Below are positions 6,293 through 21,986 of a DNA stretch of 64,000 nucleotides, piece by piece. The stretch is from a virus (taxonomy: Duplodnaviria; Heunggongvirae; Uroviricota; Caudoviricetes): IMG/VR virus record IMGVR_UViG_3300033463_000024; one strand, written 5' to 3'. The stretch's first letter is position 1. Each line of letters opens with the position of its first letter. Under the pieces are notes generated by a model, which was given only the letters and a program-made list of their open reading frames with translations, made no database searches and was not told the origin of the DNA. The translations under genes and the position numbers were made by a program.

Positions 6293-6295
6293 GGT

Positions 6296-6328: not shown

Positions 6329-6348
6329 AAAACCTATAAACTGTAGAC

Positions 6349-7053
6349 ATGAATTTCCTTGAATCATTATCACAGCTTGACATCCCTCGCCCCTTCATGG
6401 AAGCAAGTGCAAAGGCGTTTACCGCCATATTCGAAGCCAAGGATACCAAGATGGAGAAGGCCATCAAGGAGGCATGCAAGATTGCGGGCGTAAAGGATGA
6501 GGGTGACCTGTCTGACGGAAACCACACTTTCAATGACCTGTACAACCAGCGCTGTGTCCTGTTCGCCGCTCTGGTAAACCTGTTCCCGAAGATTTCCTGG
6601 AAGACAAAGAAGCATGACGACGGAAAGCCATGCTTCGGTGGAAAAAACTTCCTCGTCTGCATCGAAACTCCGAAAGGACCATATTCCTATCATTACCCGA
6701 TGAAGGACTGGGACCGATTCAAATGCAAGGAAATCGAGAAGGCCAAACCGTTCGATGGTCACACGGACAAGGATGTGGAAAGGCTCCTCTCGCTCATTCC
6801 GGAAAACCTGCCAAGAAGTATCCTTGGCGAAATCTGGAACCGAAGGGGCGACAAGTCCATGTCCAATTATCAAAAACCGGCCCCATTGGTGGAGTCGGTG
6901 AAATACGTGAAAGGCCACAAGAATTCCAAGGGCGAAGAGGCCCCGTGGGCCATCGTTTCCCATGAGACCGGCAAGATCCTGTCATCCCACAAGTCGGAAT
7001 CCGAGGCCAAGAAGCACCTTCAGCAGATGGAATACTACAAGCACAAAGGCTAG
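6349..7053 (+). CDS. hypothetical Lys-rich protein (234 aa), plus-strand gene embedded in a minus-strand block
   Basis: long ORF with protein-like composition, whereas the overlapping minus ORFs translate to low-complexity junk; no SD found and the start is uncertain. Confidence 0.45.
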   Translation: MNFLESLSQLDIPRPFMEASAKAFTAIFEAKDTKMEKAIKEACKIAGVKDEGDLSDGNHTFNDLYNQRCVLFAALVNLFPKISWKTKKHDDGKPCFGGKNFLVCIETPKGPYSYHYPMKDWDRFKCKEIEKAKPFDGHTDKDVERLLSLIPENLPRSILGEIWNRRGDKSMSNYQKPAPLVESVKYVKGHKNSKGEEAPWAIVSHETGKILSSHKSESEAKKHLQQMEYYKHKG

Positions 7054-7331
7054 AGCAGGTCCAGCACCTTCCCGATATTTTCCTCGGAAACACCGTTCGC
7101 TTCCATGATTTCAAGGATTTCGGTCTGCCAGGTCGTCAACAGTCTGGATTCTGACTTTATGGGCCTTGCGCGGGCCACGCAGGATGCCGTAATGTTGCCC
7201 AACGCCTTCTCAATCTTGCCATGGATATCCTTCACCGCGAGTCGGGCATGAATATCATTCAATGGCCCTTTTACGGATTGGACATAGTTCTCCAGATTGA
7301 GCTGGATGCTGTCCTTCATTTCCTCACGCAT
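7050..7331 (-). CDS. hypothetical protein (93 aa)
   Basis: GGGAG SD before ATG 7331; 8-nt overlap with the upstream gene. Confidence 0.5.
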   Translation of the reverse strand: MREEMKDSIQLNLENYVQSVKGPLNDIHARLAVKDIHGKIEKALGNITASCVARARPIKSESRLLTTWQTEILEIMEANGVSEENIGKVLDLL

Positions 7332-8067
7332 TCTTACTCCCGTACAAGACATTGTACATTTCGTATTCGGCTTCCGGATGTTCCTCGGGGAACGGCCACG
7401 TAAGCTGCTCCTTCAGCCACTGGACTTCCTGGCACTGGTTGTACATGAAGTCCACATATTTCCCACTCTTGGTTTCTGCGCGGAACACCTTCATCTTGGC
7501 ATCGTTTACCCCGATATAGTAGAATTTCACCTGCTCCGGCCCATTCATGAGCCACGGGAACCTCATGAGGATATAGGACCTGATTTTGTCAAGGTCATCG
7601 TTAAAATCAGGTTTCTTGGGAAGGTCTCTGGGTGTCTTAAACACAGGCAGGTCAGGCTGTTCATTCGTCTTCACATCAGTAATCTTGAAGATACCCATCT
7701 TCATGAAGGAATCCGGCTCGCAACGCTTGCACAGGTCCCTGGCTTCATTAAGCTGCTTGTTGAATTCATCCATGACCTTTGTGAGGTTTCCGGCATCAAG
7801 CTTGGCACCCTGCGACTTCGCAGCATTGCACTGGACATCGATTTCCTTGTTTATGGCGCTGATGAACTCGCGGTATATATGGATGAGCCATACCTGGTTG
7901 TTGAACACCTCGACCAGGTGGGCAAAGTGCTTCAGCAGGGCCTTTGGGTTATCGGACATGTGCGTCATGCGGTTCATCAGGTCCGCACGCACCTTATCGT
8001 CATATTCCTTGCATCGCATGAAAAGAATTTCATCAAGCTTCTCATCGGTCATTTCATCAACGTTCAT
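7324..8067 (-). CDS. hypothetical protein (247 aa)
   Basis: ORF; ATGA-type overlap with its neighbours. Confidence 0.55.
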   Translation of the reverse strand: MNVDEMTDEKLDEILFMRCKEYDDKVRADLMNRMTHMSDNPKALLKHFAHLVEVFNNQVWLIHIYREFISAINKEIDVQCNAAKSQGAKLDAGNLTKVMDEFNKQLNEARDLCKRCEPDSFMKMGIFKITDVKTNEQPDLPVFKTPRDLPKKPDFNDDLDKIRSYILMRFPWLMNGPEQVKFYYIGVNDAKMKVFRAETKSGKYVDFMYNQCQEVQWLKEQLTWPFPEEHPEAEYEMYNVLYGSKNA

Positions 8068-9044
8068 TTCATCAACTCCTGTATTGAAGCGAACCGCTCG
8101 GCAAAGTACGCAGCCAAAATTGCACCAAAGATCTCATTTTCGAATACTGAGCCCGACTGGTATCCGAAGTCGCTGACATGTGCATGATACTTATCATTGA
8201 ACACGCTTTCGCAGTTATTGTACACGGCCACCTTTCGTTTCTTGTCGGGATAATACGAGATGAATACCCGGTTGACCATGTACGATTCCTCCCGGATGAC
8301 ATATTCCACGTATGTATGGTCACCACACAATTTGTGAATTGACAACTTCGGCAATCCAAATGATTCCAGCTTACGCATAGCCTTTTCGCAAATTGGAAGG
8401 ATATCCCGATTGAACATGTCATCCATAGAAAGACCCTTGTTCAACTGCTTGGTTGTCGTCTTGGCAACCTTGTTGATTTCGTAATCAAGGATACGTTCCA
8501 GGGTGGCAAGGAAATCATCCTTCACCATGCAAGTCTTCTTAATCTTGGCCACATCGTTAATGCAGACATCAGTATGGCCATACCACTGCTTGGACGGAAT
8601 CGTTTCCTTGAGTTTCAGGAAGATGTGGTTAGTCATAGTGTTCGGAGCGTGATAATGATAATATCCCCACAGCGGATGTTCAAACCCGGTTTCACCAGCC
8701 TGTTCATACATATACTGCTGGTAAATCCACTCGAACATGTCAATGCCGTTGCTAATGCACCTGTCTTTCATATACTCAGACGAATGATGGTCAATGACAT
8801 CCGGGTGAATAATCGCATAGGACGCATTGGAAAACCGTTCATCGAACGAATTGCCAAGATTTGCATTCGGTTTGCTCATTTCAAAAATGAGATATCCGTT
8901 TGGAAGTTCTTTCAGGAAACTGAATTTTACCGGTATCACATGCGTAGTATATACCGTATGGCGATCTTCGGTACTGAAGAAACCACCGCCGACCTCCTTG
9001 GTCTCAATCCAATCCGTATCATAATTTTTGCTAAACGGTTCCAT
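8064..9044 (-). CDS. hypothetical protein (326 aa); carries an H-x-D...H motif (HPDVIDHH) as in 2OG-Fe(II) oxygenases, weak
   Basis: GGAGG SD before ATG 9044; TGATG overlap with the upstream gene. Confidence 0.5.
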   Translation of the reverse strand: MEPFSKNYDTDWIETKEVGGGFFSTEDRHTVYTTHVIPVKFSFLKELPNGYLIFEMSKPNANLGNSFDERFSNASYAIIHPDVIDHHSSEYMKDRCISNGIDMFEWIYQQYMYEQAGETGFEHPLWGYYHYHAPNTMTNHIFLKLKETIPSKQWYGHTDVCINDVAKIKKTCMVKDDFLATLERILDYEINKVAKTTTKQLNKGLSMDDMFNRDILPICEKAMRKLESFGLPKLSIHKLCGDHTYVEYVIREESYMVNRVFISYYPDKKRKVAVYNNCESVFNDKYHAHVSDFGYQSGSVFENEIFGAILAAYFAERFASIQELMK

Positions 9045-9349
9045 CACTTGCCCTCCATGTAGTCCTTCTCGCGCTGGAAGGATTCTTCCAGTTTCTTTTT
9101 CCAATAGTTCTCGCTACGTGACCAGAACAGCTTGCGGCCACTCATTGTAGCGCCGTCAATGTGGTTGGATATATACTCGGCAGCCAATAGCGCTTTCGAC
9201 CGGCGTGCGTAACTGATGCGCAAGCGGCACAGGTCACGGTACGCCTCGAAATATGCCTTGGCATTAAGGCTCATTTCAATATACGGGTTGCGGATCGGTC
9301 CAGACATGACCATTGTAAGGTCTTTTTGTTCGTATGCACTTTCAGACAT
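9044..9349 (-). CDS. hypothetical protein (101 aa)
   Basis: GGAGA SD before ATG 9349. Confidence 0.5.
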   Translation of the reverse strand: MSESAYEQKDLTMVMSGPIRNPYIEMSLNAKAYFEAYRDLCRLRISYARRSKALLAAEYISNHIDGATMSGRKLFWSRSENYWKKKLEESFQREKDYMEGK

Positions 9350-9359
9350 GGCATTCTCC

Positions 9360-9788
9360 TTATACACAGTATGCGGCATACGGCGAATCGTATTTCCTGA
9401 ACATCTTGCCAAGATCCGGTTTCACCACGCCTAGTTCATTTGCTCGGGCATATAGGGCCATGAGTGCCGGCTCCGTATCGTCACCGAAGGCATAGGTCGG
9501 ATTAGCCGTTTCAATCATCCAAAGCGCCCTTTGCACCATTTCTTTCTCATCCTTGCAGAGAACAAACTTTCCGCATTTGGCAGCAATCGAAGCTCTGGTA
9601 TCCGATGTAATATCGTGGGTACCGTAGGTGATAAATTCGTTCTTGCTGGAGAGGTACACGGTCATGCAGACGAACTCGCCTGCATAATGTCTCCTGGGAT
9701 CGGGGAACCTTCCGTTCACAGCAACTTCGATATCCAGTGCGAGAGCATCCTCGCTGTCGTCCAATGGCTTGCATAAGTGTGTATTCAT
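9360..9788 (-). CDS. hypothetical protein (142 aa; MNTHLCKPLDD...)
   Basis: ATG 4 nt downstream of the conserved promoter box. Confidence 0.55.
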   Translation of the reverse strand: MNTHLCKPLDDSEDALALDIEVAVNGRFPDPRRHYAGEFVCMTVYLSSKNEFITYGTHDITSDTRASIAAKCGKFVLCKDEKEMVQRALWMIETANPTYAFGDDTEPALMALYARANELGVVKPDLGKMFRKYDSPYAAYCV

Positions 9789-9792
9789 GTTC

Positions 9793-9824
9793 AAAATGTA
9801 GCATTTCCTGCTAGAAATGGCAAC
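9793..9824 (-). promoter_or_regulatory. conserved promoter GTTGCC-N13-AATGCTACATTTT
   Basis: consensus copy; leaderless arrangement. Confidence 0.6.
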
Positions 9825-9843
9825 ATTGGTGTAGTTTCCAGGC

Positions 9844-10578
9844 ATGGAACCGCAAGTCATCATATCCCTTACAAGCTGGAAGGGGCGCATATACAACGAG
9901 CTTACCGCCCCGGTCATATTCTCCTACATCACCCAGGAATCCCCGGTACCGTTCAAGGTGGTACTGGTACTGTCATCGGACGAATTCCCCGGTAAGGAAG
10001 CCGAAGTGCCGGAGGGCATATTGAAACTGGCAAAGGGATGCGAAAACTTTGAAATCCTCTGGACGGTCGCCAATACTGGTCCATACAAAAAATACTTCCC
10101 CGTGAAGGAGAAGTATCCAAGCTTACCAATCATTACCGTAGACGACGATTCTACCGCATATCCGCATTTCATGAAGACCTTGTGGAAGCTTCACACCGAA
10201 CATCCGGACAGGGTAATATATGGATGTGCCGGACAGCCGTACTCCTGGATGAACAGGCACAGTATAGACGGCGTTAGGTATGGTGTCGCTTTGTATCCGC
10301 CCGGTTCCACGTATGACCTGGATGCACAGTTCGGCATCAAGTACTTTAAGTTCATGGACGACGAGTTCATGAGGCTCCTGTGCCTCCTGAACGGCACCCA
10401 CCATGTGACCATAGACGCCAATTCAGTCCTTATTATCAACGGTTTCGCCCAGGACAAGGCAATCGGTCGTGTCCATGGGCGAGAGTTCCGTGAAATCGGG
10501 GACATGTGGGGGCGCCTTGGGTCAGAGCATCCCGAATTGAAGAAGATTTGGGAAGAAAAACGTAAGATTCCCAACTGA
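9844..10578 (+). CDS. putative GT-A-like glycosyltransferase, member of a 3-paralog family (IISLTSWKGRI ... VDDD)
   Basis: 244-aa ORF; paralogous to 26516..27193 and 27845..28522, sharing the SLTSWK(G/A)R N-terminus and a DDD (DxD-like) motif. Confidence 0.55.
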   Translation: MEPQVIISLTSWKGRIYNELTAPVIFSYITQESPVPFKVVLVLSSDEFPGKEAEVPEGILKLAKGCENFEILWTVANTGPYKKYFPVKEKYPSLPIITVDDDSTAYPHFMKTLWKLHTEHPDRVIYGCAGQPYSWMNRHSIDGVRYGVALYPPGSTYDLDAQFGIKYFKFMDDEFMRLLCLLNGTHHVTIDANSVLIINGFAQDKAIGRVHGREFREIGDMWGRLGSEHPELKKIWEEKRKIPN

Positions 10579-10585
10579 GCATGAC

Positions 10586-11110
10586 CTAAATAGTCCATGA
10601 TTCCAGTTTAAACCACGTGCCATCATCACGCGGTCTCACTGTTATTTTTAATGTAATATCATAACTGTGGCCATCCAGGATATATTCTAACTGGTCAAGT
10701 TCCTCAGCCGACTGGTTATTATCGTACACGTGATACAGCGTCACACGTACAGTGTCATCTTTGCGCTCACAGATGAATTCGATGAAGCTATCCGGACTAG
10801 CATCTTGGTTGTCCCAATGATAGCAGAGGCCTGGAATAGTAATGAAATCAGACAGAGCGAATGTGCACTCAATGTCCGTAGGTGAATTCGCACTTAGCTC
10901 CCTGACGTTGGAGTCAGTATTAACCACGTTTTTCAGTTTTTCAAGTTCCGCCGCGATACCGGTCGGCGTAATTTCTCCGTTGCAAAAACAGACATTCGCA
11001 TGCTTATCGGATACGGTAATTACCTGTTCGCCGGTTGTAACAATATGAACCCCGTACCGATTCTCGAGTGTACGCAATTCATCCAAGAATGTCTTAAGAT
11101 TGTTGGTCAT
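10586..11110 (-). CDS. hypothetical protein (174 aa)
   Basis: GGAG SD before ATG 11110. Confidence 0.5.
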   Translation of the reverse strand: MTNNLKTFLDELRTLENRYGVHIVTTGEQVITVSDKHANVCFCNGEITPTGIAAELEKLKNVVNTDSNVRELSANSPTDIECTFALSDFITIPGLCYHWDNQDASPDSFIEFICERKDDTVRVTLYHVYDNNQSAEELDQLEYILDGHSYDITLKITVRPRDDGTWFKLESWTI

Positions 11111-11150
11111 TCTGACTCCGTGTTCCATAATGTTTCATTTTTCACCCATC

Positions 11151-11420
11151 CTATGACTCTTTTAAGTTTTTGAGGATATCACACAGGTCTTCCTGCAGCA
11201 TGCAATGCAGCGGTTCCTCGCCCTCGATAAAGAGGATAACCATCTGGGGCACATCGTACTTGTCCGGCGGACAGTACCGCATGACTAGCGTCTCGCCCAC
11301 CATGCAGTCGGTGAACCGCCGGTCACTGATGCGGCTGTGCGTAAACACGATGTCATGCTCGGGAAAGTACCGTTCGCATGCCTCGTAGAAGTCCGCCTTT
11401 GTGACCACCGGGCCGTGCAT
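11151..11420 (-). CDS. hypothetical protein (89 aa)
   Basis: TAATG overlap with the upstream gene. Confidence 0.45.
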   Translation of the reverse strand: MHGPVVTKADFYEACERYFPEHDIVFTHSRISDRRFTDCMVGETLVMRYCPPDKYDVPQMVILFIEGEEPLHCMLQEDLCDILKNLKES

Positions 11421-11734
11421 TATTTACGCCCCAGGTACATGTAAGTGTCGGAGTCTTCGGCCCATGCTGCAATGTGCTTCTTGCAGGACGGGCACTCCGT
11501 TGCCAAAATGAAGCTGGCCTTACGTTCCGGGTTGTACCATCGGGCCCTCCCGCGCATGGGGGTGCATTTGTAGACCCACATCTGGTCATAACCGGCCATG
11601 AAGGCGGCCTGGCAGTGCAAGCACTTGAACTCTACGCCGTAGCGGATCTCGTTGAACTTGACATCATCGTCCAGTTCCACGTCGTAGTCACTGGAAATGT
11701 CGAGACTCTTCCTTACATCTTGTTCCGATACCAT
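11420..11734 (-). CDS. zinc-ribbon protein (CxxC...CxxC), 104 aa; its 5' end is duplicated at 13113..13254
   Basis: AGGAG SD; KCLHC...CPSCK motifs. Confidence 0.55.
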   Translation of the reverse strand: MVSEQDVRKSLDISSDYDVELDDDVKFNEIRYGVEFKCLHCQAAFMAGYDQMWVYKCTPMRGRARWYNPERKASFILATECPSCKKHIAAWAEDSDTYMYLGRK

Positions 11735-11743
11735 ATTACACTC

Positions 11744-12373
11744 CTAGATTGGAACTGTCCTGCAAAGGTCACAGTAGTCCTTCTTCCACACGAACCATGC
11801 GTGGCACATGGTGGTCGCCCAGCGCTTGCCGTTCTCGTCCCACTGCTGCCCGTTGTTCCATGTGGGCATACGCTTGGAGAAGGGGAAGCAGAATGCCGGC
11901 GGGTTGTCCAGGAGGAACTGCTTGCGCTTCTCGCCTTCCCAGAACTGGATTTTCAGGAACATGGCCAGGTAGCCCCGGTGTTCAAGATGTTCCAGACACT
12001 TCTTCACGAAGTCGAGTGCGATGGAATACGGGGGATTGGTGACGATGAGCTGGTACTTCCGTTCCGGCTTGAACGTCATGAAGTCCTGCACGATGGTCTC
12101 CGGGTACCCGCGGTCCACGATGTCTACGAATGTATTCACCGATTCCGGACGGTGGAGGGAGAAGTTGAAGTAGTCCAGCGTGGCCCTGGCGATGTTGCCG
12201 TTGCCCACGCACGGTTCCATGAAGGACCACGGGGAGAAATCAGTGAACTCATTGTCGTACATGCAGAGAGCCTTGAAAAGCTGCTCCACCGCTGCAGGGT
12301 CGGTCGCGTAGAAGTCGTTATCGACACGACCGTTTTCCGGGTTGCCCCCGGCCAGTTTTCCACCTTGCATCAT
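11744..12373 (-). CDS. DNA methyltransferase (N6-adenine or N4-cytosine class; motif IV TNPPYS, motif I-like EPCVGNGN)
   Basis: NPPY catalytic motif read from the translation; own conserved promoter and GAGGA SD. Confidence 0.65.
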   Translation of the reverse strand: MMQGGKLAGGNPENGRVDNDFYATDPAAVEQLFKALCMYDNEFTDFSPWSFMEPCVGNGNIARATLDYFNFSLHRPESVNTFVDIVDRGYPETIVQDFMTFKPERKYQLIVTNPPYSIALDFVKKCLEHLEHRGYLAMFLKIQFWEGEKRKQFLLDNPPAFCFPFSKRMPTWNNGQQWDENGKRWATTMCHAWFVWKKDYCDLCRTVPI

Positions 12374-12402
12374 ATCCTCATGTGGTTAATTGTTTACCTT
12401 GT

Positions 12403-12433
12403 AAATGTAGCAAAAATTTCTTACACCGGCAAG
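12403..12433 (-). promoter_or_regulatory. conserved promoter CTTGCC-N13-TTTGCTACATTTA
   Basis: consensus copy about 30 nt upstream of ATG 12373. Confidence 0.6.
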
Positions 12434-12437
12434 AAAC

Positions 12438-12722
12438 TTACACGCATTCCCGGCATGCACCGAATTTCAACGCCTCCGAAATCTCGAAGGCAATCGTCTG
12501 GTACTCCTCGGCTGTAATGCAATACTTGTTCAGCACGTCTCCGCTCGGTTGCTTGATGTCGCAGCGCATGTCGCGACAGCCGAATTCCTGTGCATGGGCC
12601 TTGTCGTGGTCGTACTTGCGCACGAAGTCGTTGTAATCCAACGGCTCCCCGTTGATATGGCAGTCGGGGTTCAGTTCGCAGATGTCGCCGTAATGCGGCG
12701 CAACCTTGTATTCTAGTAGCAT
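12438..12722 (-). CDS. hypothetical Cys-rich protein (94 aa; MLLEYKVAPHYGD...)
   Basis: AGAGGA SD; the longer ORF start lies inside the promoter box. Confidence 0.5.
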   Translation of the reverse strand: MLLEYKVAPHYGDICELNPDCHINGEPLDYNDFVRKYDHDKAHAQEFGCRDMRCDIKQPSGDVLNKYCITAEEYQTIAFEISEALKFGACRECV

Positions 12723-12740
12723 ATCGTGTCCTCTTTTCCC

Positions 12741-12772
12741 CAAATGTAGCATTAAGGGACACGCATGGCAAC
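12741..12772 (-). promoter_or_regulatory. conserved promoter GTTGCC-N13-AATGCTACATTTGG
   Basis: consensus copy. Confidence 0.6.
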
Positions 12773-12776
12773 CTGG

Positions 12777-13211
12777 CTAATCGGGGAACACCTTGTCGAG
12801 CGCCTTGGTGAACAGGTAGTGGGCGCCTGGCCCCCAGACACCGTTGGCAATGCCTGTACCGATAATCCCCCACTTCGCCGGTTCTTGAGCCGTCAATGAA
12901 CAGTATGTCATTCCCGCCATGATGGGGAGGCCCACCCAGATTATGTAGAGTACCAGGAGAATGCAGATTAAGGCGGCTACGCCAAGTCCCTTCATCAGCG
13001 TGAGATAGCATTCCGCCCATGTCTCGTCCTTGAAGAATACTGGCCTCAGGGGCACCGGGGACCACAGGACAATCGCAGCAATGACCAGGATACCGGGCAC
13101 GAGGCCGACATCCGGCCATGAATGCGGCCTGACAATGTTTGCACTTGAATGATACACCGCCGCGAATTTCATTGAACTTGACATCGTCATCCAGTTCCAC
13201 CTCATATTCAC
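12777..13211 (-). CDS. small membrane protein, paralog of 14112..14591 (shared C-terminus W.PGAHYL..K.LDKVF); N-terminally truncated and chimeric, since its first ~33 codons are an alternate-frame reading of the duplicated segment
   Basis: protein-level similarity to its paralog over ~110 aa; lacks the paralog's first TM helix. Confidence 0.4.
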   Translation of the reverse strand: MNMRWNWMTMSSSMKFAAVYHSSANIVRPHSWPDVGLVPGILVIAAIVLWSPVPLRPVFFKDETWAECYLTLMKGLGVAALICILLVLYIIWVGLPIMAGMTYCSLTAQEPAKWGIIGTGIANGVWGPGAHYLFTKALDKVFPD

Positions 13212-13254
13212 TGGAAATATTAAGACTCTTTCTTATATCTTGTTCCGATACCAT
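13113..13254 (-). pseudogene. duplicated 5' fragment (47 codons, MVSEQDIRKS...CQAAFMAG) of the zinc-ribbon gene 11420..11734, then frame-shifted into the membrane gene
   Basis: ~147 bp at ~78% identity to 11591..11737, including the SD and ATG; downstream translation is R/P/G-rich junk. Confidence 0.55.
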
Positions 13255-13266
13255 ATCACCTCGCAT

Positions 13267-13560
13267 TTACATTTCATATCTTTGCAGATGGATTACAGAT
13301 TCAGAATTCACCTGTCCATGAGGGCCGTGCCACCTAAACTTAAAAACGGTAGTTCCTTGAAGGAGATAGTAAACCAACGCATCAACCTTCTCCGGGAATG
13401 TTTTCGGGAGCGTATCATTAATCGGTTGGTCGTCAATGTAGACAGTGCAGGATGTTGACAGGATTCGTTCAACCTCGTCACGGAACACCTTGATGATATC
13501 GTCATTGTCATATTTGGTGCCAACTGCCAAAATAAAGCTGTCACGAATTAAAAATACCAT
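13267..13560 (-). CDS. hypothetical protein (97 aa)
   Basis: ATG 13560; the listed ORF start is a TTG. Confidence 0.45.
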   Translation of the reverse strand: MVFLIRDSFILAVGTKYDNDDIIKVFRDEVERILSTSCTVYIDDQPINDTLPKTFPEKVDALVYYLLQGTTVFKFRWHGPHGQVNSESVIHLQRYEM

Positions 13561-13573
13561 TTGTTCCCTTTTA

Positions 13574-14059
13574 TCAATGGGTGAAGTCTTGTTCAAGTGC
13601 GGTAAGATCGGACAGCAGATTGCATAAGTTCTTGGTCACCTTGCAAAGCACCTTGGCCATTTCCTTATCGGAAATTACAGTAAGGTGAGCCATGTCCATG
13701 ATGTCGCACTTAGTGTCTTTCTTGTCCATACAGAACAATATGCCGTCGGAACGCAAGCTCAGTTCATTAGACACGCTGAGACGGTAATCACAAGAACGAT
13801 CCAGGCGGTACTCGCCGGGAGCGAATTTCCGCAAGTTGTCGATCCTGAATATTCTGTAATGACCACCAGCCGTCTTGTCATAGGTGTGCTCGTCATGGAT
13901 ACCCCATCCGCCAAGAGTCACCCACTTGCCAACGAACTTGGCCGTGAGCGCATTCGTCTCCTCGGCGTCAACCGAGGCTCTGAGCTTGGCCCGCTCGTTG
14001 CGCAGGTTCTGTATCTGATGGTCAATGTCGTCAAGTTTCTGTCGTGTAGTCTTCTTCAT
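13574..14059 (-). CDS. hypothetical coiled-coil protein (161 aa), distant paralog of 36919..37422
   Basis: starts directly after the promoter box; shared architecture (N-terminal coiled coil, W..GGW motif, ..VIS.. segment). Confidence 0.5.
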   Translation of the reverse strand: MKKTTRQKLDDIDHQIQNLRNERAKLRASVDAEETNALTAKFVGKWVTLGGWGIHDEHTYDKTAGGHYRIFRIDNLRKFAPGEYRLDRSCDYRLSVSNELSLRSDGILFCMDKKDTKCDIMDMAHLTVISDKEMAKVLCKVTKNLCNLLSDLTALEQDFTH

Positions 14060-14074
14060 TGCTGTACCTTTACT

Positions 14075-14107
14075 GCAAATGTAGCAAAGGGGACCGCCGG
14101 TGGCAAC
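14075..14107 (-). promoter_or_regulatory. conserved promoter GTTGCC-N13-TTTGCTACATTTGC
   Basis: consensus copy. Confidence 0.65.
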
Positions 14108-14111
14108 AGGG

Positions 14112-14591
14112 CTACTTTGAAGACTTGTCAAACACCTTATCCAACCACTTATCATATAGGTAGTGTGCGCCTGGCGCCCAAATTACATTGAAAACCAGAG
14201 TGGCGACAACTTCAAAATCTTTCGGTCCCCGATTTAGCAATGCGCTAATAGTCAAGCCAGCCAATATAGGAAGGCATACCCAGATAAGCCATCCGGCAAT
14301 AAAAGCACATACTATGATACCCATAACAATGCCTTCAAATGTTTTCCGGTATGATTCCCACAATGTACAGGAACCATAGTCATCCATATGCGCAAAGCGA
14401 AGCACTATCGGTGCCCACAGCGCAATGGCTACCAGATCCCCGGCAACTACCCACCAGCTGATGTCAGTATTCTTGGTCGCAACCATATAGGCTATGAGAA
14501 TAAGGCCCGGCAGCATGAGAGCAAGGGCTATCATGCCCGATTTGGTAAATGTCCATAAGGAACGTAGTGCACTTTTGTAAACTTCAAGCAT
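14112..14591 (-). CDS. small multi-pass membrane protein (159 aa), full-length paralog of 12777..13211
   Basis: hydrophobic segments; AGAGG SD; promoter box upstream. Confidence 0.55.
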   Translation of the reverse strand: MLEVYKSALRSLWTFTKSGMIALALMLPGLILIAYMVATKNTDISWWVVAGDLVAIALWAPIVLRFAHMDDYGSCTLWESYRKTFEGIVMGIIVCAFIAGWLIWVCLPILAGLTISALLNRGPKDFEVVATLVFNVIWAPGAHYLYDKWLDKVFDKSSK

Positions 14592-14609
14592 TCTATACCT
14601 CTTTTTGGT

Positions 14610-14637
14610 AAATATAGCATATTTTTGCTATATTTGG
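14610..14637. promoter_or_regulatory. divergent promoter pair: AAATATAGCATA (minus) and TTTTTGCTATATTTGG (plus)
   Basis: variant consensus boxes facing genes 14591 (minus) and 14641 (plus); the plus ATG is 4 nt after its box. Confidence 0.5.
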
Positions 14638-14640
14638 GGC

Positions 14641-15282
14641 ATGACTAGCAATGAAAATACTTACCAGACACTTAAAAGCCTTTGCAACAACTCCATCTGT
14701 CAACGCGACAAGGATCCTCGGTGGATTGTCAGCGAGGAATACGCACTTACCAAAAAGGACTTCAAGATTAACTGGCACACCCCCGGAGTAATGGACGGGG
14801 GAATAGATGTCGATATCAAAGTCGGCTGTGATGGAACGCTGTCCATAAAAACCATCCAGGATGGCATAGTCGAACTGGGAACGCTCGACAAATACACCAT
14901 GAAACTCGAACGCTTCCGCAACCGGATGATAACGATTATAATTGATGCCAACACAAACAACCCATATAATGACGGAAGCGGCAAAATACAGGTTGTAGCC
15001 ATTGACGACCCGGAGTACATCCTGTGGCAGGTACAGTATTTCAACTACATAGCCAACGAGGAACAGTTCGTTGTAGTCAAGGCCAGGTCAAAGAACGAGG
15101 CAAAGGTCATCGCATGGCACGATTCATGCTACTGTTATCGTAACGCAATCAACCCAGATACATTCAAGGTATGGGAATACAGCGGGCCGCACATCATTTC
15201 CCGTGACCCGAAGTTTAGCGATGAGGAGATGAAGAAACAGATGCTCATCTGCGAGGAATACGACAAGGAATATGGTGAATAA
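14641..15282 (+). CDS. hypothetical protein (213 aa)
   Basis: ATG right after the promoter box; a terminator follows. Confidence 0.55.
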   Translation: MTSNENTYQTLKSLCNNSICQRDKDPRWIVSEEYALTKKDFKINWHTPGVMDGGIDVDIKVGCDGTLSIKTIQDGIVELGTLDKYTMKLERFRNRMITIIIDANTNNPYNDGSGKIQVVAIDDPEYILWQVQYFNYIANEEQFVVVKARSKNEAKVIAWHDSCYCYRNAINPDTFKVWEYSGPHIISRDPKFSDEEMKKQMLICEEYDKEYGE

Positions 15283-15292
15283 TTGCCTAATA

Positions 15293-15327
15293 AAAAGGAT
15301 TGCCTCAATGGCAATCCTTTTTGTTTT
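15293..15327. terminator. bidirectional rho-independent terminator (AAAAAGGATTGCC-loop-GGCAATCCTTTTTGTTTT)
   Basis: perfect 11-bp stem with flanking A/T runs, between convergent genes. Confidence 0.7.
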
Positions 15328-15751
15328 ACTTCAGTATCAAATTTTCCAGTTTCTTGTATATCTCATATATGAATGAGCCTATGAAAGCAACTGCATGCGA
15401 GATGACAAATCCCACCCACATCGGAAGCAATAACGGGAACAATATCAACATAGGAGCAATTACCTTCCCGTACCGTTCCCTACGTTCTTCGGTGGTCGGT
15501 TCATATTCAAGCGGATCATCCCCGGCCATATATAATACGGCTACGATAAAGAATATGGAATTTATTGCGCCATATACACCCATTACAGTATGGGATACTA
15601 TGGTATAATGTTCAAAGCCAAGCGCATTAAGTCCCATCAAATCCAGATACAGCAGCACGATTGCATCAATAACCATTGTACTCCACATGATGCCCGGATA
15701 TTCGGCGGTCAAATCAGACAGTGTGCTATGTAATAATTTTATAAGTTTCAT
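15326..15751 (-). CDS. membrane protein (141 aa)
   Basis: hydrophobic ORF. Confidence 0.5.
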   Translation of the reverse strand: MKLIKLLHSTLSDLTAEYPGIMWSTMVIDAIVLLYLDLMGLNALGFEHYTIVSHTVMGVYGAINSIFFIVAVLYMAGDDPLEYEPTTEERRERYGKVIAPMLILFPLLLPMWVGFVISHAVAFIGSFIYEIYKKLENLILK

Positions 15752-15755
15752 GTAT

Positions 15756-17141
15756 TTACCTTATTTTTAAGATTTCCTGGGCTTCATCATATTGCGCAAT
15801 TGTGAGATACCATGGCTTTGCGCGGATCGAGTTCCAGCAATACTGGGTACCGTTCTCATAGTTTCCAAAATTCTTATATGACGGTCGTGCCAGCTTTTTC
15901 ACCAGCCCGTAATACAGCAAGTCTACGTCACCGGTGTACTCCTTGTACTCGTCCCAGAATGTTTTATTGATGAACTGGATAAACTCGATTGGCGTCATGT
16001 CGCCGATGTAAGTTTCCACCACCTTCTTGGATTTACCTTTGCGGTAATTGACATCGCCATGAAGGCAGCACATGGTATGCCAGTTAAATCCAATCTGCTG
16101 CCTGCCATAACATTCAAATTCATAGACACTGTTCTGGCAGAGCGCGTATATGTCCTCGTCTCTGTTCTCAGGCTCGTAGTAGAAGAAATTTGATAATTTG
16201 GGATCGCTTCCACGGTCATACGTCTGCATGAAAATGTCGGTAATCATGCATATTGGCAGTTCTTTAAGCTTCATGCTGGCAAACGGAACCACATCCAAGT
16301 TTGTTACGCCGGCACGCCAACCCCGGCGCAGATAACGCGTATCAAGTCGTCTGACATGATTCTTCCAATCTTTCCACTCGATATACGGCACAGGCTCACG
16401 AATGGCGACATTTTCCGTCGGAGCATACTCTTTGGCCGGAGTGAAATGCTGCTTGACATGACCACAGTCCCCCAATGTTCTATCGACAATCATGGAGTCA
16501 AAATCCAAGTGTCTACTCGACACCATGGCATCATAACGCATGGTAAACGTCCGGAAATTATAGTCCCGCCCAACGACAATGTAGTTACGCCAGAAGCAGT
16601 TAGTGGAACTATCACAATAGGATCTTCCAGTACCGCAAACCTGATGCATCAGCGGCTTAATCATCTCAACAAGCTTCCGTGCATCGACATAGTAGTCGCG
16701 AAGCTTTTCAATCAATGGACTGCATGGGATGCGGTCAACGTCCTTGGGCATGAGCGATTCCTTGCCGATCGGGCCAACACTGAGACCTCGGCTAATGACA
16801 TATATGCCCTCGTCAGGGGAATCGTGCGTACGCTTTCCAAGTGTAGTAAACGCAGAAACATCGTGCATTACTGGCCGCACATATGGATTATATTCGTAAT
16901 CCCAGTCATAATATGGACTAAAATACCGAAAATCGCCAGCTTTACTCAAAGCTATCGAATCTTCGCAAATGCAACTATGCCCACGGGACCAACTGCTATC
17001 CCGATCGTTATAATAAACGCCGAGAACGATGCAGTTGTCGCTCGGCTTACCGTAAAGGTCGAAAATACGGTCGATTTCCGTGCATAGCTGGTCATACAGC
17101 TTTTTGCTGGTTTTCTTTACTGGCTTAGTCATATTCACCAT
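15756..17141 (-). CDS. hypothetical large Cys-rich protein (461 aa)
   Basis: long ORF. Confidence 0.55.
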   Translation of the reverse strand: MVNMTKPVKKTSKKLYDQLCTEIDRIFDLYGKPSDNCIVLGVYYNDRDSSWSRGHSCICEDSIALSKAGDFRYFSPYYDWDYEYNPYVRPVMHDVSAFTTLGKRTHDSPDEGIYVISRGLSVGPIGKESLMPKDVDRIPCSPLIEKLRDYYVDARKLVEMIKPLMHQVCGTGRSYCDSSTNCFWRNYIVVGRDYNFRTFTMRYDAMVSSRHLDFDSMIVDRTLGDCGHVKQHFTPAKEYAPTENVAIREPVPYIEWKDWKNHVRRLDTRYLRRGWRAGVTNLDVVPFASMKLKELPICMITDIFMQTYDRGSDPKLSNFFYYEPENRDEDIYALCQNSVYEFECYGRQQIGFNWHTMCCLHGDVNYRKGKSKKVVETYIGDMTPIEFIQFINKTFWDEYKEYTGDVDLLYYGLVKKLARPSYKNFGNYENGTQYCWNSIRAKPWYLTIAQYDEAQEILKIR

Positions 17142-17156
17142 TTTGTTAATATTATT

Positions 17157-17456
17157 TTACATCCACTTAGTGCTTATTTTTCCTTCGTCCCTCATGTCGC
17201 TTAATATGTTCAGGACAATGATGGGAATGAAGAGGAACACGACACAATACGCCATCAGGGCGTACCCGAATATGTTTTCAGTAGTGTTGGCATATTTCCA
17301 CGGTTCTTCTTCGAGAAGGACAAGAACATAAACCACTGTGCCAAGTGCAAACATGCTGAACAACGCATATACAACCGCCATCCAGCCAAAAATAAGGCCA
17401 ACGATGGCAAACAGCAGTATGTAAGTGGCGAGAACTATAATTGGGATCGGTTTCAC
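17157..17456 (-). CDS. small membrane protein (99 aa)
   Basis: hydrophobic ORF. Confidence 0.45.
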   Translation of the reverse strand: MKPIPIIVLATYILLFAIVGLIFGWMAVVYALFSMFALGTVVYVLVLLEEEPWKYANTTENIFGYALMAYCVVFLFIPIIVLNILSDMRDEGKISTKWM

Positions 17457-17482
17457 GGTCTATTCTCCATGTCTTTCTTCAT

Positions 17483-17689
17483 TCATGGTTTGGGTACCGC
17501 CTGCTTGTTATTCTCGATGCACAGGTACGGCTTCTTCCGGTACCAGTTTTTGCCAGTAGCTATATTCGGGTTGTAATAGTTGCTTGCAATAGTCTTCCAT
17601 GCCTTCTCGCATTCATCGAGGGTCGAGAACTCCCCGATTGGCAATGGCCAACCGGAAAGGTAGGAAATGAGGATGAAATATTTAATCAT
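17483..17689 (-). CDS. small protein with an N-terminal hydrophobic segment (68 aa)
   Basis: ORF. Confidence 0.4.
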   Translation of the reverse strand: MIKYFILISYLSGWPLPIGEFSTLDECEKAWKTIASNYYNPNIATGKNWYRKKPYLCIENNKQAVPKP

Positions 17690-17692
17690 GGG

Positions 17693-17938
17693 TTATTTCA
17701 GGATATAATTGGTAACTTGCTTGATTTCACGCCCATCGGAACATGTAAACGAGCTAGACTTTCCATACGCGGTGTGAACCGTATGCAAGACACCCGAACA
17801 CACCGGCTGGTCATTTCCAATCATATACAGAACACCCGCTGTATCTTTTGGCTTGGCCAGCACAGCGTATACGACCAATATGATCAATAACGCAATGATG
17901 GATATCGCCAATTCCATAGTGGAATTTTTTGTTGACAT
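17693..17938 (-). CDS. small membrane protein (81 aa)
   Basis: ORF. Confidence 0.4.
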   Translation of the reverse strand: MSTKNSTMELAISIIALLIILVVYAVLAKPKDTAGVLYMIGNDQPVCSGVLHTVHTAYGKSSSFTCSDGREIKQVTNYILK

Positions 17939-17944
17939 GTCGTC

Positions 17945-18571
17945 CTACTTGTTTAATTTTTCAACTTCTTTCCAGAAACCGTCGAGATATTCCTGATTCT
18001 CGCGCCATCTTTCTTCATCTTCTATCATATGTTGCTTATGATATTGAATGTCAGATACGGCAAGGTTAATCAGATTGGCCTTATATGCATCAAGGCCTTC
18101 CTGGCTAGCGAGAGCAGTCTTCAATGAGTCCACGTATCGCGCATGCCATGTATCTTCATCCGGCTCGGAACTTGAAATCTGCTCAAGTGCAAACTTCTTT
18201 ACAGGAAGATATTTTTCGTCGCAATCCCATTCCTGGATAGCGTTCTTGACCTTGGTGAGACGTTCCAAAGCTTCGGCATTCTCGGCAGCTTCCTTCTCAT
18301 GGCGAGCGGTTGCCGAATCAATTTCAGTTTCAATTTCCTTTATCCATTCATCGTCAGTTCTCGCACGAAGACGTTCAAGTTTTTCCTTGGCCTTTGCAAG
18401 TTCCTCCTTATGATAGGTTTCCTTCTCCAATGTCTTGGGTATATTTGGAGAAAGTGGCTCATCTCTATACGCGCAGAGAATGCCAAACCCGCGCAAGCAG
18501 AGCTTTACAAAATCATACGCACTAGTCATGCCATCTTTGATAATGAAACTAGTAAAGCCAGTCATTTGCAT
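17945..18571 (-). CDS. hypothetical protein with a central coiled-coil/charged region (208 aa)
   Basis: promoter box plus AAGAGGA SD upstream. Confidence 0.55.
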   Translation of the reverse strand: MQMTGFTSFIIKDGMTSAYDFVKLCLRGFGILCAYRDEPLSPNIPKTLEKETYHKEELAKAKEKLERLRARTDDEWIKEIETEIDSATARHEKEAAENAEALERLTKVKNAIQEWDCDEKYLPVKKFALEQISSSEPDEDTWHARYVDSLKTALASQEGLDAYKANLINLAVSDIQYHKQHMIEDEERWRENQEYLDGFWKEVEKLNK

Positions 18572-18596
18572 ATTTATTTCCTCTTTGTTTATGTGA

Positions 18597-18627
18597 CATA
18601 TGTAGCAAAGATGCCACTACGTGGCAA
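18597..18627 (-). promoter_or_regulatory. conserved promoter GTTGCC-N13-TTTGCTACATATG
   Basis: consensus copy. Confidence 0.6.
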
Positions 18628-18632
18628 CTTCG

Positions 18633-18812
18633 TTAGTCGTCGTCATCATGGAACAGGTTGAACGGATCGAGAACGTCCTTTACGACCTTTTCCGTGTCAT
18701 CGGCTACACATTTCGCGCCGCGCACGCCCGCCTTGGTGGCAGAAGATGCGACATCAGCAACGGCATCAGCCGTATCCGCAATAGTTCCAACGATTCCACT
18801 AAGAATACCCAT
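18633..18812 (-). CDS. small protein (59 aa), Ala/Asp-rich
   Basis: AAGGAG SD 8 nt before ATG 18812. Confidence 0.45.
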   Translation of the reverse strand: MGILSGIVGTIADTADAVADVASSATKAGVRGAKCVADDTEKVVKDVLDPFNLFHDDDD

Positions 18813-18814
18813 AA

Positions 18815-19077
18815 TCAAGTCTCCTTGTTGTTAGTTCCCGGAAGCGCCGGGAAGCGCCATGAAGCTATTTCATAAACATCATATTCGATGCAGAAATCTT
18901 CGTTCTTAGGATCATAGTCAAAACAGTCGAATTCCTCGTCATAAAGGAGTTTCACCGTCTTGACTGTCCCATCAAACATCTTGAATTCGACAGGGACTAT
19001 CCACGACTTGTCCCATTCCAGTTCATGGTCAAACGGTCCGCATTCAGTGAAATCAGAATGCCATTCAGTGTCTATCA
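18815..19077 (-). CDS. hypothetical protein (87 aa)
   Basis: GGAGG SD before ATG 19077; the longer ORF's N-terminus overlaps gene 19080..19298 in another frame. Confidence 0.45.
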
Positions 19078-19079
19078 TT

Positions 19080-19298
19080 CTATTCCTCCGTATCCAGGTG
19101 GCTGTCGACCCATTCGGTACCGCACAGGATATCAATGGCATAATACAGACCCATTTCAAACCCCTTGGCGAATGAATGACGGTCAAGGGACGGGTCCTTT
19201 GCACTCTCGCACCGGAAATCACTGCTTCCTTCGCGTAGGGTCCGGTATTTCTTAATGTGTTCCAGGAACTTCTTGATGTCTTCTTCCTCAACTACCAT
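19080..19298 (-). CDS. hypothetical protein (72 aa)
   Basis: AGGAG SD. Confidence 0.45.
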   Translation of the reverse strand: MVVEEEDIKKFLEHIKKYRTLREGSSDFRCESAKDPSLDRHSFAKGFEMGLYYAIDILCGTEWVDSHLDTEE

Positions 19299-19306
19299 AA
19301 TTTCTC

Positions 19307-19753
19307 CTAGATAAGCGGTATAATAGGAAACAGGTCATCGTCATCAATCCACACATCTATCGGAAGACAATCGCGAAGGATGGACACATCACTAATAAAT
19401 TGCCACTTGTAATCATATTTTAACCTATCCCTGATTCTTACCAAGTATTCCTTGCCATGGGACATGCGAATCGGGTTCCAATAATTGGGCCTGTGGCTAT
19501 CTGTTGAAATCGGCTTGCTAAACCAATGCGTAAATGGCAAATGTTCAAGTTTCTCAATCGTCGTATCCGGGCGAACTTCAATCAAATCATAAGCTCCACC
19601 ATTGTCGGTAAACAGGTAATATCCACCCCCATACTGCATGCTCGGAATATGCAGAGTACAGTCTCCCCGGTGCAGCAAGTTCCACTCGTACGGGTTACCC
19701 GGTCGAGTCGGTTTCAGTAACAGTAATTCAATCTTCGGCCCTAAGCAACTCAT
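19307..19753 (-). CDS. hypothetical protein (148 aa)
   Basis: GAGGA SD. Confidence 0.5.
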   Translation of the reverse strand: MSCLGPKIELLLLKPTRPGNPYEWNLLHRGDCTLHIPSMQYGGGYYLFTDNGGAYDLIEVRPDTTIEKLEHLPFTHWFSKPISTDSHRPNYWNPIRMSHGKEYLVRIRDRLKYDYKWQFISDVSILRDCLPIDVWIDDDDLFPIIPLI

Positions 19754-19759
19754 ATTTCC

Positions 19760-20206
19760 TCAACTAGCTTCCTTGGTCGAAATTTGGCTTAGAATTCGCT
19801 GTACCCTTTTGGCGATATGCTTTCCGTCTATGGAGATATAATGGAAATTACCATCGTTTCTAATACTTTCCTTGTATTTGTTGTCATATCTGAAAAAATC
19901 AGTCCAATATGTCAAGTGTGGCAATTTACCGTCAGCTACACAGGTACAGTCATACACGAACGCAAGTTGGTCCTTATAATAATACCCTACCCTTTCCTTG
20001 TATGATGAAATATGTTTCTGTGTAAACTCGTACTTAGATGCTTCAACAAGCGAATCAATTTCTTTCTTGGTATCGAGATATTGCTGACTTGGTGCTAAGT
20101 TACGGAATTCTGGGTCTTTTGCCTTGGCCTTAGTATATTCTTCGAGGATTCCAGGATGTACAAGGCCAAGCCAACCTACAAAGTCTTCAGCATCTTTCTG
20201 ATTCAT
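19760..20206 (-). CDS. hypothetical protein (148 aa; MNQKDAEDFVGW...)
   Basis: start placed downstream of the promoter box; the longer ORF start would contain the promoter. Confidence 0.5.
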   Translation of the reverse strand: MNQKDAEDFVGWLGLVHPGILEEYTKAKAKDPEFRNLAPSQQYLDTKKEIDSLVEASKYEFTQKHISSYKERVGYYYKDQLAFVYDCTCVADGKLPHLTYWTDFFRYDNKYKESIRNDGNFHYISIDGKHIAKRVQRILSQISTKEAS

Positions 20207-20228
20207 CAAGTTCTCCTGTGTTATGTAC

Positions 20229-20284
20229 TCAATGTAGCATTGTTTCCTCCTGTTGGCAACTAGGAACATTTTTGCTACATTTGT
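20229..20284. promoter_or_regulatory. divergent promoter pair sharing a central GTTGGCAAC: minus AATGTAGCATT and plus TTTTTGCTACATTTG
   Basis: two consensus copies back to back; the plus ATG at 20288 is 4 nt after its box. Confidence 0.65.
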
Positions 20285-20287
20285 GAC

Positions 20288-20500
20288 ATGGACCAGAAAA
20301 CACCAAAACCAATAGAGCAATACGCCGTAATCGCCATATGCGAGATATGGACCATCAAGGTCAATGGAGTCGTTGAAACCAGATATCGTGACCCGTTTAA
20401 ATTTGTCGATACCGTGGAGGAGGCCGAAAAGATCATCCAATATGAAAAGGATGAATCAATCCTTCACCGCAAATGCGCATATAATACAAAAACTATATAA
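20288..20500 (+). CDS. hypothetical small protein (70 aa)
   Basis: immediately downstream of a consensus promoter. Confidence 0.5.
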   Translation: MDQKTPKPIEQYAVIAICEIWTIKVNGVVETRYRDPFKFVDTVEEAEKIIQYEKDESILHRKCAYNTKTI

Positions 20501-20502
20501 GA

Positions 20503-21798
20503 CTAGGCAAAAGTGTATATATTATAACACTTTTGTATATAATTTTTGCTGAAGACTGCATTCTGGATATAATCCTTAAGCAGGAACCGGTATTTCAGTC
20601 CCGATTCTTTAATTTTAGAGAAAAGTCCTTTCCAGTCCTCCACTGCAGCGAGTGTTTGCTTCCATTGCTCATCTCGGGGCTGAATATTGAATCTTGGATA
20701 GAACCATCCCTTTTCGAATTTCTTGTAAGCACGGCGTGCGATCTCTATCGAGGCGGCAATCATGTCCGGCGTATTCCCGTTCCCGTAGGCGAAGTTGCCT
20801 ACGACTGACGAGTACATCGGGTTGACCTCGACGATATCATACTTGTGAAGTTCGGCAAGCATCTTTAGCTTGGTTGTAAACAGCCTGCGTTCCCACTTGT
20901 TGTTGCATAGCCGGTTTACCTTCTTGCCTTTCTTGTGATCCTTCGGCTTGATGCTTAGATCCTCAATGGCGACCGTCCTGCATTTCCACACATCCACAAG
21001 TCGGGAAATCTCGTGTGCAATCGCAATCGTCTCGTGCCTTAGCTTGTTCGTAATGTACTTGGATGCGGAATCGCTGCTTGCCTTGCCGGAGGATACCGTT
21101 AATTTGCTCAAATCGAATACACGCTTGTGAAGCACCCTGAATTCATCGTTCTTGTCGAACTCTATTACGGAAAGCCCGATATAGCTGGGATTCATGTCGA
21201 TACCCAGTATTCGGTTACGCTTAAGCTTCTTGAACCTCGCATCGTATATCAGACTCTCATCGTAAGTAAGCCATACGTACTTTTCAGACAACTTAACCGA
21301 TACCGTTATCTTGTTTTGCTCCGCAAGCTCCTGCACCTTCGCAAGCTCGTTTGCTATCTTCTTCCGCATCGGAAGAAATTCTATGTCAACATGCCTGCCC
21401 CGGCATGGCTTGTACAAAATCTTCTGGTTATTTAAGTCGAAATCAAATAGACGATTTCCTTGATAGTTCGCCTGACCCTGTATTCCTACAGGAAACATCC
21501 TACGATATTTGAATGTTAGCTTGTCTATAATCCCGGTAAGGTACTGGTGAAGGTTGTTCTTGCCGCCGAACAGTATTCGCGTATCCCCGTTTAATTTATG
21601 CAAGGCAGCCGCTTCCTTGATCGCACACTGGATGAACCAACGGTTCGTTGCAAATAAATTATTACAGTACGCACGGACTTCCTTCTCGTCCATCCCATCC
21701 TGATAACGGTTGTAGGCAACGTGGACTATACTACTGAACACACGCATGTCGTCCAGCACATCTATCCTGTTGCTTATTGTCAGCTTAACCGTCTTCAT
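20503..21798 (-). CDS. TnpB-like (IS200/IS605 OrfB/Cas12-like) RuvC nuclease homolog lacking the zinc finger; RuvC-I GIDMN, RuvC-II IEDL and RuvC-III DMIAASIEIARRA are present
   Basis: 431-aa ORF; the three RuvC motifs are read from the translation, and there is no CxxC..CxxC between RuvC-II and RuvC-III. Confidence 0.6.
   Translation of the reverse strand: MKTVKLTISNRIDVLDDMRVFSSIVHVAYNRYQDGMDEKEVRAYCNNLFATNRWFIQCAIKEAAALHKLNGDTRILFGGKNNLHQYLTGIIDKLTFKYRRMFPVGIQGQANYQGNRLFDFDLNNQKILYKPCRGRHVDIEFLPMRKKIANELAKVQELAEQNKITVSVKLSEKYVWLTYDESLIYDARFKKLKRNRILGIDMNPSYIGLSVIEFDKNDEFRVLHKRVFDLSKLTVSSGKASSDSASKYITNKLRHETIAIAHEISRLVDVWKCRTVAIEDLSIKPKDHKKGKKVNRLCNNKWERRLFTTKLKMLAELHKYDIVEVNPMYSSVVGNFAYGNGNTPDMIAASIEIARRAYKKFEKGWFYPRFNIQPRDEQWKQTLAAVEDWKGLFSKIKESGLKYRFLLKDYIQNAVFSKNYIQKCYNIYTFA
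20507..20545. terminator. hairpin CAAAAGTGT-N10-ACACTTTTG followed by T/A-rich sequence; overlaps the 3' end of the TnpB-like ORF
   Basis: perfect 9-bp inverted repeat. Confidence 0.45.
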
Positions 21799-21813
21799 TT
21801 TTTCGATTTCTTA

Positions 21814-21853
21814 GGCAATTCTATTGCAAATATACTTCATTTTGCTATATTTG
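21814..21853 (+). promoter_or_regulatory. promoter-like box GGCAAT...CATTTTGCTATATTTG (plus orientation)
   Basis: variant of the consensus; about 130 nt upstream of ATG 21987. Confidence 0.4.
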
Positions 21854-21986
21854 TCAATAGTTTTATATGATTTTGAGATGTCAAAAATGGACAATGGGGC
21901 AATTTGCCGAATACATGCGACAGCAGTTTGAATATGTACATTCAGTATTCAGCAGTCACAGCCTATAAGGGCAGGGTTATGAAACT

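Follow-up and report, generated by a model that had tools for sequence, protein, structure and literature searches.

Insertion sequences (IS) of the IS607 family, such as IS607 and ISXfa1, encode a serine-recombinase transposase (TnpA) with an N-terminal MerR/helix-turn-helix (HTH) domain together with the nuclease TnpB, and solo tnpB derivatives of these elements are common. The omega RNAs, or right-end RNAs (reRNAs), of IS607 TnpB cross the right end of the element into the flanking DNA (PMC10711439), and this layout, along with the homing activity of TnpB (PMC10711439, PMC13565253), provides the basis for the mechanism considered below. A C4 zinc finger (TNB domain) between RuvC-II and RuvC-III is typical, not obligatory, for TnpB because it has been lost in some large branches of the family, according to the census of Altae-Tran et al. 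(2023), in which some branches are also enriched in viruses (PMC10691335). One phage-borne relevant element, ISCaje4 of Campylobacter phage CP220, was named in 2010 (ISfinder, GenBank; PMC2853527). Here we analyze a locus in a 64,000-nt stretch of a Caudoviricetes genome (IMG/VR record IMGVR_UViG_3300033463_000024; hereafter, the window), where an open reading frame (ORF) of 431 aa on the minus strand (20503..21798) encodes a TnpB-family RuvC nuclease without a zinc finger. The locus is most probably a non-autonomous, tnpA-less IS607-family element inserted into the genome of a giant (Lak-like) gut or rumen phage, a unit of about 1.4 kb that carries its own left-end promoter, the nuclease gene and a structured RNA at the 3' end (about 240 nt plus the right end).

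The inserted unit is delimited by an empty allele. A pattern joining both window flanks was scanned in metagenome contigs and yielded one contig, L028, of a related phage, with the uninterrupted site (CCATTTTTGATATGCGCATTTGCGGTGAAGG), in which the left flank of the window (21882 upward) is joined to the right flank (20481 downward) via one shared A, as ...CCATTTTTG-A-TATGCGCATTTGCGG... or, more widely, ...GGCAAATTGCCCCATTGTCCATTTTTG-A-TATGCGCATTTGCGGTGAAGG...; the flanks of L028 are approximately 93-95% identical to those of the window, as counted on the alignment. Pattern searches of IMG/VR for empty sites of the window element and of two further copies described below (L002 and L026) returned nothing. 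The whole element occupies about 20482..21881 on the minus strand (20482/3..21880/1, ~1399 bp, one junction A being assignable to either 21881 or 20482) and consists of the left end, the promoter, the tnpB-like gene and the right end, with no target duplication beyond the 1-nt overlap (A). In L028, the site falls within an uninterrupted 93-aa ORF, where ...HRKCAY is followed, across the junction, by QKWTMGQFAEYMRQQFEYVHSVISNHNL and the stop. In the window, the 5' part of this ORF (20288..20500, plus strand) retains native residues 1-65 and takes its last five codons and stop from the right end of the element (MDQKTPKP...HRKCAY followed by NTKTI), and the orphaned 3' part (21882..21968, plus strand) translates to QKWTMGQFAEYMRQQFEYVHSVFSSHSL, that is, the C-terminus of the intact L028 ORF. 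The unit is a discrete insertion that has an empty allele and splits a phage ORF.

The left end (21799..21881, minus strand) contains a promoter with a -35 box TTGACA (21857-21852) and a -10 box TATATT (21834-21829) at 17-nt spacing, an 11/12 match in a promoter scan, as well as a 7-bp palindrome, AAATATA/TATATTT. The block ...ATAAAAC-TATTGACA-N17-TATATTT is shared by paralogues and by a related full element, L025, where it lies in the left end ahead of the transposase gene, and the right-end tail of the element reads TCTTATATAGTTTTTGTATT(A) (20483-20502). The original prediction had seen no matching terminal hairpin pair; conserved left and right ends are in fact present, though they are neither hairpins nor inverted repeats, and the ~1399-bp unit resembles IS607-family elements in having no terminal inverted repeats and no target duplication past the 1-nt overlap. 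The description of the gene as lying between conserved phage promoters turned out to be half right: a probable phage promoter in the flank is confined to the motif at 20270-20282, the upstream promoter (21857-21829) being part of the mobile unit. An IS200/IS605 (Y1) element was ruled out, as no Y1 transposase was found beside any copy examined and the ends are not a hairpin pair, and an origin from Cas12 of a CRISPR system was ruled out by the lack of any CRISPR or repeat array in 19500-23000.

The closest relatives of the 431-aa protein, with 77-92% identity over all 431 aa, are encoded on contigs of up to 474 kb. The nearest copy, in L002 (92% identical protein, 89% identical DNA), has a T4 gp13-like structural gene on one side and a gp15-like one on the other; what it shares with the window is limited to the gene, ~85 nt before the ATG and ~22 nt beyond the stop codon (an alignment of 1402 nt that includes the TG immediately outside the left junction), the flanks being unrelated. 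Copies with at least 75% DNA identity occupy at least six distinct contexts (window, L002, L020, L025, L026 and L029); IMG/VR phage contigs carry two to three diverged paralogues each, and in Lak phages the family gene is found in up to five places. A scan of 185,579 species genomes produced only 10 loci, all on contigs of metagenome-assembled genomes.

The link to IS607 comes from copies that retain a transposase. The gene P0118, 78% identical to that of the window, lies in a 2078-bp unit in which a gene for a 208-aa serine recombinase precedes that of the nuclease, and this unit is 99.95% identical in L025 and L026, in unrelated contexts. The recombinase matches the NF033518 model ('IS607 family transposase') with 153.7 bits at a cut-off of 110 and has the HTH + Resolvase layout (L025-27). 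A serine recombinase is also encoded directly upstream of distant members of the family (L035, L036 and L038), and a resolvase-type remnant is present upstream in ISCaje4. The left end of L025, upstream of tnpA, resembles the window upstream region (...ATAAAC-TATTGA...-TATATTT...), suggesting that in the window copy deletion of tnpA has joined a left end to tnpB.

The promoter region varies among related elements. In paralogues L004, L007, L008, L013, L014 and L012, the ATG lies mostly ~6-7 nt past the -10 box (…GTATATTTAGGGT-ATG), pointing to mRNAs with little or no leader. The spacer between the -35 and -10 boxes of the paralogues is usually palindromic, e.g. ACTATTATATAATAGT, and might serve as an operator or bind the transposase. 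One subfamily of elements (L020 3845-4000; L029 2850-3000) has an extra leader of ~150 nt between the promoter and the ATG, with many hairpins (e.g. GGCAGCAATGCC, and TCCTATTTGGAAC...GAATAGGA) and a predicted ORF of 32 aa; L029 lacks the left-end promoter and has a tRNA-like sequence upstream.

The protein itself bears out the TnpB/Cas12 layout proposed originally, with a split RuvC domain and all three acidic residues of the D-E-D triad located in RuvC-I GIDMNPSYIGLSV (D201), RuvC-II VAIEDLS (E279) and RuvC-III DMIAASIEIARRA (D345). Sequence libraries detect it only faintly. Two PHROGs match it (transposase and RuvC-like; E 0.002-0.01), a single-sequence search of PDB sequences found nothing, and a profile search against PDB gave weak matches to Cas12f and TnpB (E 0.006); a DNA search of GenBank phages with 19000-23500 returned no match. 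Standard pipelines annotate the gene as 'hypothetical', and the only Pfam record for relatives of the protein is a newer model, PF27229 (SSO2105_N). The same window also encodes a canonical TnpB (55202-56419, minus strand) that contains CxxC..CxxC and is recognized by Pfam Cas12f1-like_TNB and by guided_TnpB (221 bits); comparison of the two proteins with BLASTP and hhalign was not significant, with the D and E motifs aligning. Another gene of the canonical type (409 aa, OrfB_IS605; L020 943-2172) is polymorphic as an insertion when the related phage contigs L020 and L022 are compared, and therefore these phages host two unrelated TnpB lineages.

Scanning 1.84 billion cluster representatives turned up 965 relatives with E<=1e-3, of which 303 have E<=1e-30. 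It is nearly restricted to large phage contigs, with more distant members in Lak megaphages of Prevotella, in Campylobacter phage CP220 (the annotated ISCaje4 TnpB) and in Thermus phages. An alignment of 132 full-length relatives with 30-50% identity shows an invariant catalytic triad (D201 and D345 in 132/132, E279 in 131/132), along with invariant N203 and P204, E352 and R355 conserved in 131/132 each, and a (nearly) invariant R356. The stretch between E279 and D345 (57-80 aa) contains no CxxC in any of these relatives (0/132), in line with the original observation on the single sequence. The loss of the zinc finger is thus a trait of the whole lineage, and the active site is kept.

The AlphaFold2 model of the 431-aa protein, built from 114 sequences, is of high confidence (pLDDT 94.9, pTM 0.86) and shows a WED-REC-RuvC fold that matches Cas12f, TnpB and Fanzor2 over 265-300 residues; the protein is thus of the TnpB/Cas12f nuclease type. 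The top hits in a viral structure library come from Myoviridae, where the proteins are uncharacterized, and from a Campylobacter phage protein labeled 'putative endonuclease'. Compared with canonical TnpB (ISDra2, ISFba1), Cas12f and Fanzor2, to which identity is 12-15%, the window protein has a helix and loop of ~15 residues (330-344) in place of the CxxC..CxxC TNB insert, D-x-N-P instead of D-hydrophobic-G in RuvC-I, and a C-terminal extension of ~70 residues in which W389, K397, Y403 and R404 are conserved and which might functionally replace the zinc finger. The ISCaje4 protein belongs to the same family (29% identity over 97% of the length), shares the zinc-finger-less segment (VQPQYSSFIGNLVYRVHQLPDYVLASIEIGRRG) and is likewise encoded by a large virulent phage, but is a distant relative from another phage group and host. 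Membership in RIIIr-4, the branch that the census treats in detail (PMC10691335), was ruled out: in RIIIr-4, the RuvC-III Asp is replaced by His and the link is to RHH/MazE, whereas every aligned member of the window family keeps Asp345, and a serine transposase is the partner.

The nuclease is under strong purifying selection, with a dN/dS of 0.057 between the window and L002 in the body of the gene, a value that bears on two alternatives. The original prediction favored a domesticated, phage-retained nuclease or regulator over an active IS, that is, a nuclease of transposon origin that is kept for phage use (RNA-guided exclusion of competitors, or regulation) and is no longer mobile. Such a role would agree with the persistence of solo copies under purifying selection (dS 0.655 for the same pair), the absence of tnpA from the 64-kb window, the several diverged paralogues per phage genome, and the element promoter, which partly mimics a phage promoter motif (AAATATAGCAAAA-N12-GCAATA, 21840-21852). 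Domestication is nevertheless unlikely, given that a phage ORF is destroyed by the insertion, which is itself polymorphic, that the element occurs at different loci with conserved ends, that the triad is intact, unlike in TldR-type regulators, and that full IS607 copies with 78%-identical genes exist. Intact ends and multiple copies had been named at the outset as findings that would contradict domestication; both were found, tnpA having merely been lost from the window copy, and the domestication reading is therefore not supported. A TldR-like regulator in particular was ruled out by the invariant triad, the insertion polymorphism and the variation of loci. The same selection measure argues against an immobile, functionless relic of an old IS607 insertion, a very remote prospect: the missing transposase would be expected of a relic, and truncated or frameshifted relatives exist, but the window copy has a full-length ORF without loss of any catalytic or family-invariant residue, and the promoter, the right end and the RNA helices are intact. 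Among the damaged members of the family, the gene in L015 (1837-3180) stops after 37 codons and is frameshifted, and that in Campylobacter phage F379 (H10) is split into two 'putative endonuclease' ORFs; thus, copies of the element also decay.

The 3' end of the gene carries a second layer of constraint, as expected from the original suggestion of a guide-RNA-like scaffold over this region. Synonymous codon identity among the 14 paralogues compared rises from 0.42-0.56 in codons 1-360 to 0.68-0.73 in codons 361-431, and dS for the window-L002 pair falls from 0.655 in the body of the gene to 0.231 in its last 71 codons. RNAalifold predicts nine helices with 42 pairs within the last ~220 nt of the ORF. 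In the sequences from which this structure was derived, 97.4% of the cells pair, compared to 29-44% in slid-partner controls, with compensatory changes in 16 pairs versus 1-3 in the controls and with many G-U pairs. When a covariance model built from the paralogue alignment was run on independent loci, all of those searched gave a match at the 3' gene end, including loci whose proteins are just 30% identical; in this set, 89.9% of the cells pair and 26/42 pairs show compensatory changes, counts that are flattered by the model-fitted alignment. The terminal hairpin (20507-20534; 9 bp, -8.9 kcal/mol), noted originally, is real, and an equivalent hairpin forms in nearly every paralogue folded (it is weak in L009), though the encoded C-terminal residues differ. 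A fixed-column test gave only 62.5% pairing for this hairpin because its register shifts between paralogues, so the evidence for it consists of single-sequence folds. No Rfam family was found over 20200-22000.

Together, the nine helices (20552-20724), the terminal hairpin and the right-end tail (20483-20502) make up a candidate omega/reRNA scaffold (20483..20724, minus strand). The G-U pairs and the strand asymmetry indicate a putative sense-strand RNA rather than a DNA element, and the size and position of the structure would fit, by analogy, an omega/reRNA scaffold running into the right end, as in IS607-family elements, whose structured RNA extends from the 3' part of tnpB across the right end.

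The RNA also bears on the possibility that the nuclease, having lost the zinc finger, acts independently of RNA, either as a protein-guided homing endonuclease or as a structure-specific RuvC-type resolvase, the 3' RNA serving for transposase binding, termination or mRNA stability. We consider this improbable, to about the same degree as domestication. The failure of all curated TnpB models to match the protein, the U-rich 3' arm of the terminal hairpin, which is like that of a weak terminator, and a layout like that of free-standing phage homing endonuclease genes (PMC13565253) would all be compatible with such a nuclease; yet a structure of ~240 nt with nine helices and many compensatory and G-U pairs exceeds the needs of a terminator or of a double-stranded DNA binding site, and its position and size match those of known reRNAs (PMC10711439). 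The Seg/Mob homing endonuclease genes of T4-like phages are similarly small, self-promoted nuclease cassettes that are present or absent between related phages and are expected to spread in co-infection. They differ from the element described here in that the fold is unrelated, target recognition by the window-type nuclease is probably mediated by RNA, and the window-type cassette can also be moved by a transposase.

Several results weigh against the interpretation of the locus as an IS607-family element with an RNA-guided nuclease. No transposase gene for the element was found in the 64-kb window or beside most copies, leaving the present mobility of the window copy hypothetical. The junction overlap is a single A, in contrast to the clean matching GG-type dinucleotide of ISXfa1 (PMC10711439), and neither a consistent target-adjacent motif nor a crossover dinucleotide is derivable from the five left junctions, which differ (TTTTTG/A, GATATG/A, TTTTTTG/T, TTCGA/TA and CACTT/TA, with the slash marking the junction) and in which the left-flank ends are non-uniform. 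The nuclease is missing the zinc finger, which may have a role in DNA loading, and escapes every curated TnpB model: a Pfam search gave no match, PF07282 included, the score against TIGR01766 ('TnpB-related') is 20.8 bits, below the cut-off of 32, and the protein fails both the IS607_TnpB and the guided_TnpB models of NCBIfam, in which respect it differs from the nucleases of the IS607 family proper. Pairing counts for the RNA are inflated, since the structure comes from the very sequences on which it was tested and the second alignment follows the model.

Two further features of the window stand out. A bipartite motif, AAATGTAGCAAAw-N12-GGCAAC, occurs at about 11 sites in the window (99, 6298, 12403, 12742, 14077, 18598, 26399, 55080 and 59073 on the plus strand; 35174 and 20282 on the minus strand), mostly directly upstream of genes, and is probably a phage-specific promoter. 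Adjoining the element, a 272-aa gene (21987-22805, plus strand) has a GC content of 56%, versus ~43% in the flanks, and no Pfam match. This gene is missing from L028 (about 2100-2190), which retains only its last ~14 codons, and is a second presence/absence cassette. Its sole IMG/VR homologue (L019 4500-5852) lies beside a tRNA array; synteny via this neighbor, with a single distant locus in another context, was uninformative.

Combining the features of the element with the known TnpB biology, we propose the following scheme. The 3' end of the mRNA would be processed to an omega/reRNA that keeps ~16-20 nt of the right flank (TATGCGCATTTGCGGTGAAG; TATGCGCATTTGCGG...) as the guide. The predicted guide segment (20462..20481, minus strand), placed according to the TnpB/IS607 reRNA layout (PMC10711439), is TATGCGCATTTGCGGTGAAG; this sequence is identical in L028 over 23 nt and is preceded there by ...CCATTTTTGA, not by the right end. 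The complex of TnpB with this RNA would cut element-free alleles such as that of L028, where ...TTTTTGA is directly followed by the guide-matching sequence, the targets being sister or co-infecting phage genomes. Recombinational repair from the occupied genome would then copy the element back during replication or co-infection, resulting in retention or homing, and movement to new sites would depend on a serine transposase provided in trans by a full-length copy.

The element is not a new kind of system: its architecture, transposase partner and RNA position are those of known IS607/TnpB elements. No paper found in our literature search characterizes the zinc-finger-less lineage, its RNA or how it spreads among giant phages. 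For annotation, a gene now labeled 'hypothetical' becomes that of an IS607-family element nuclease, and about 965 sequence clusters escape the current TnpB models. The apparent dispensability of the zinc finger across an entire lineage that keeps the triad informs the role of the TNB and the engineering of compact editors, and a direct test of RNA-guided homing between co-infecting phages is offered by the predicted guide and the pair of matched alleles, one occupied and one empty. More speculatively, and with less than even odds, the lineage might be specialized for large phage genomes, with solo cassettes of promoter, TnpB and omega RNA spreading and persisting transposase-free among co-infecting giant phages, in the manner of gene drives that home by RNA guidance, and with the conserved C-terminal domain taking the zinc-finger/TNB role. 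If this were true, viruses would provide a natural case of RNA-guided homing that needs no transposase, and programmable nucleases would gain a distinct minimal architecture.
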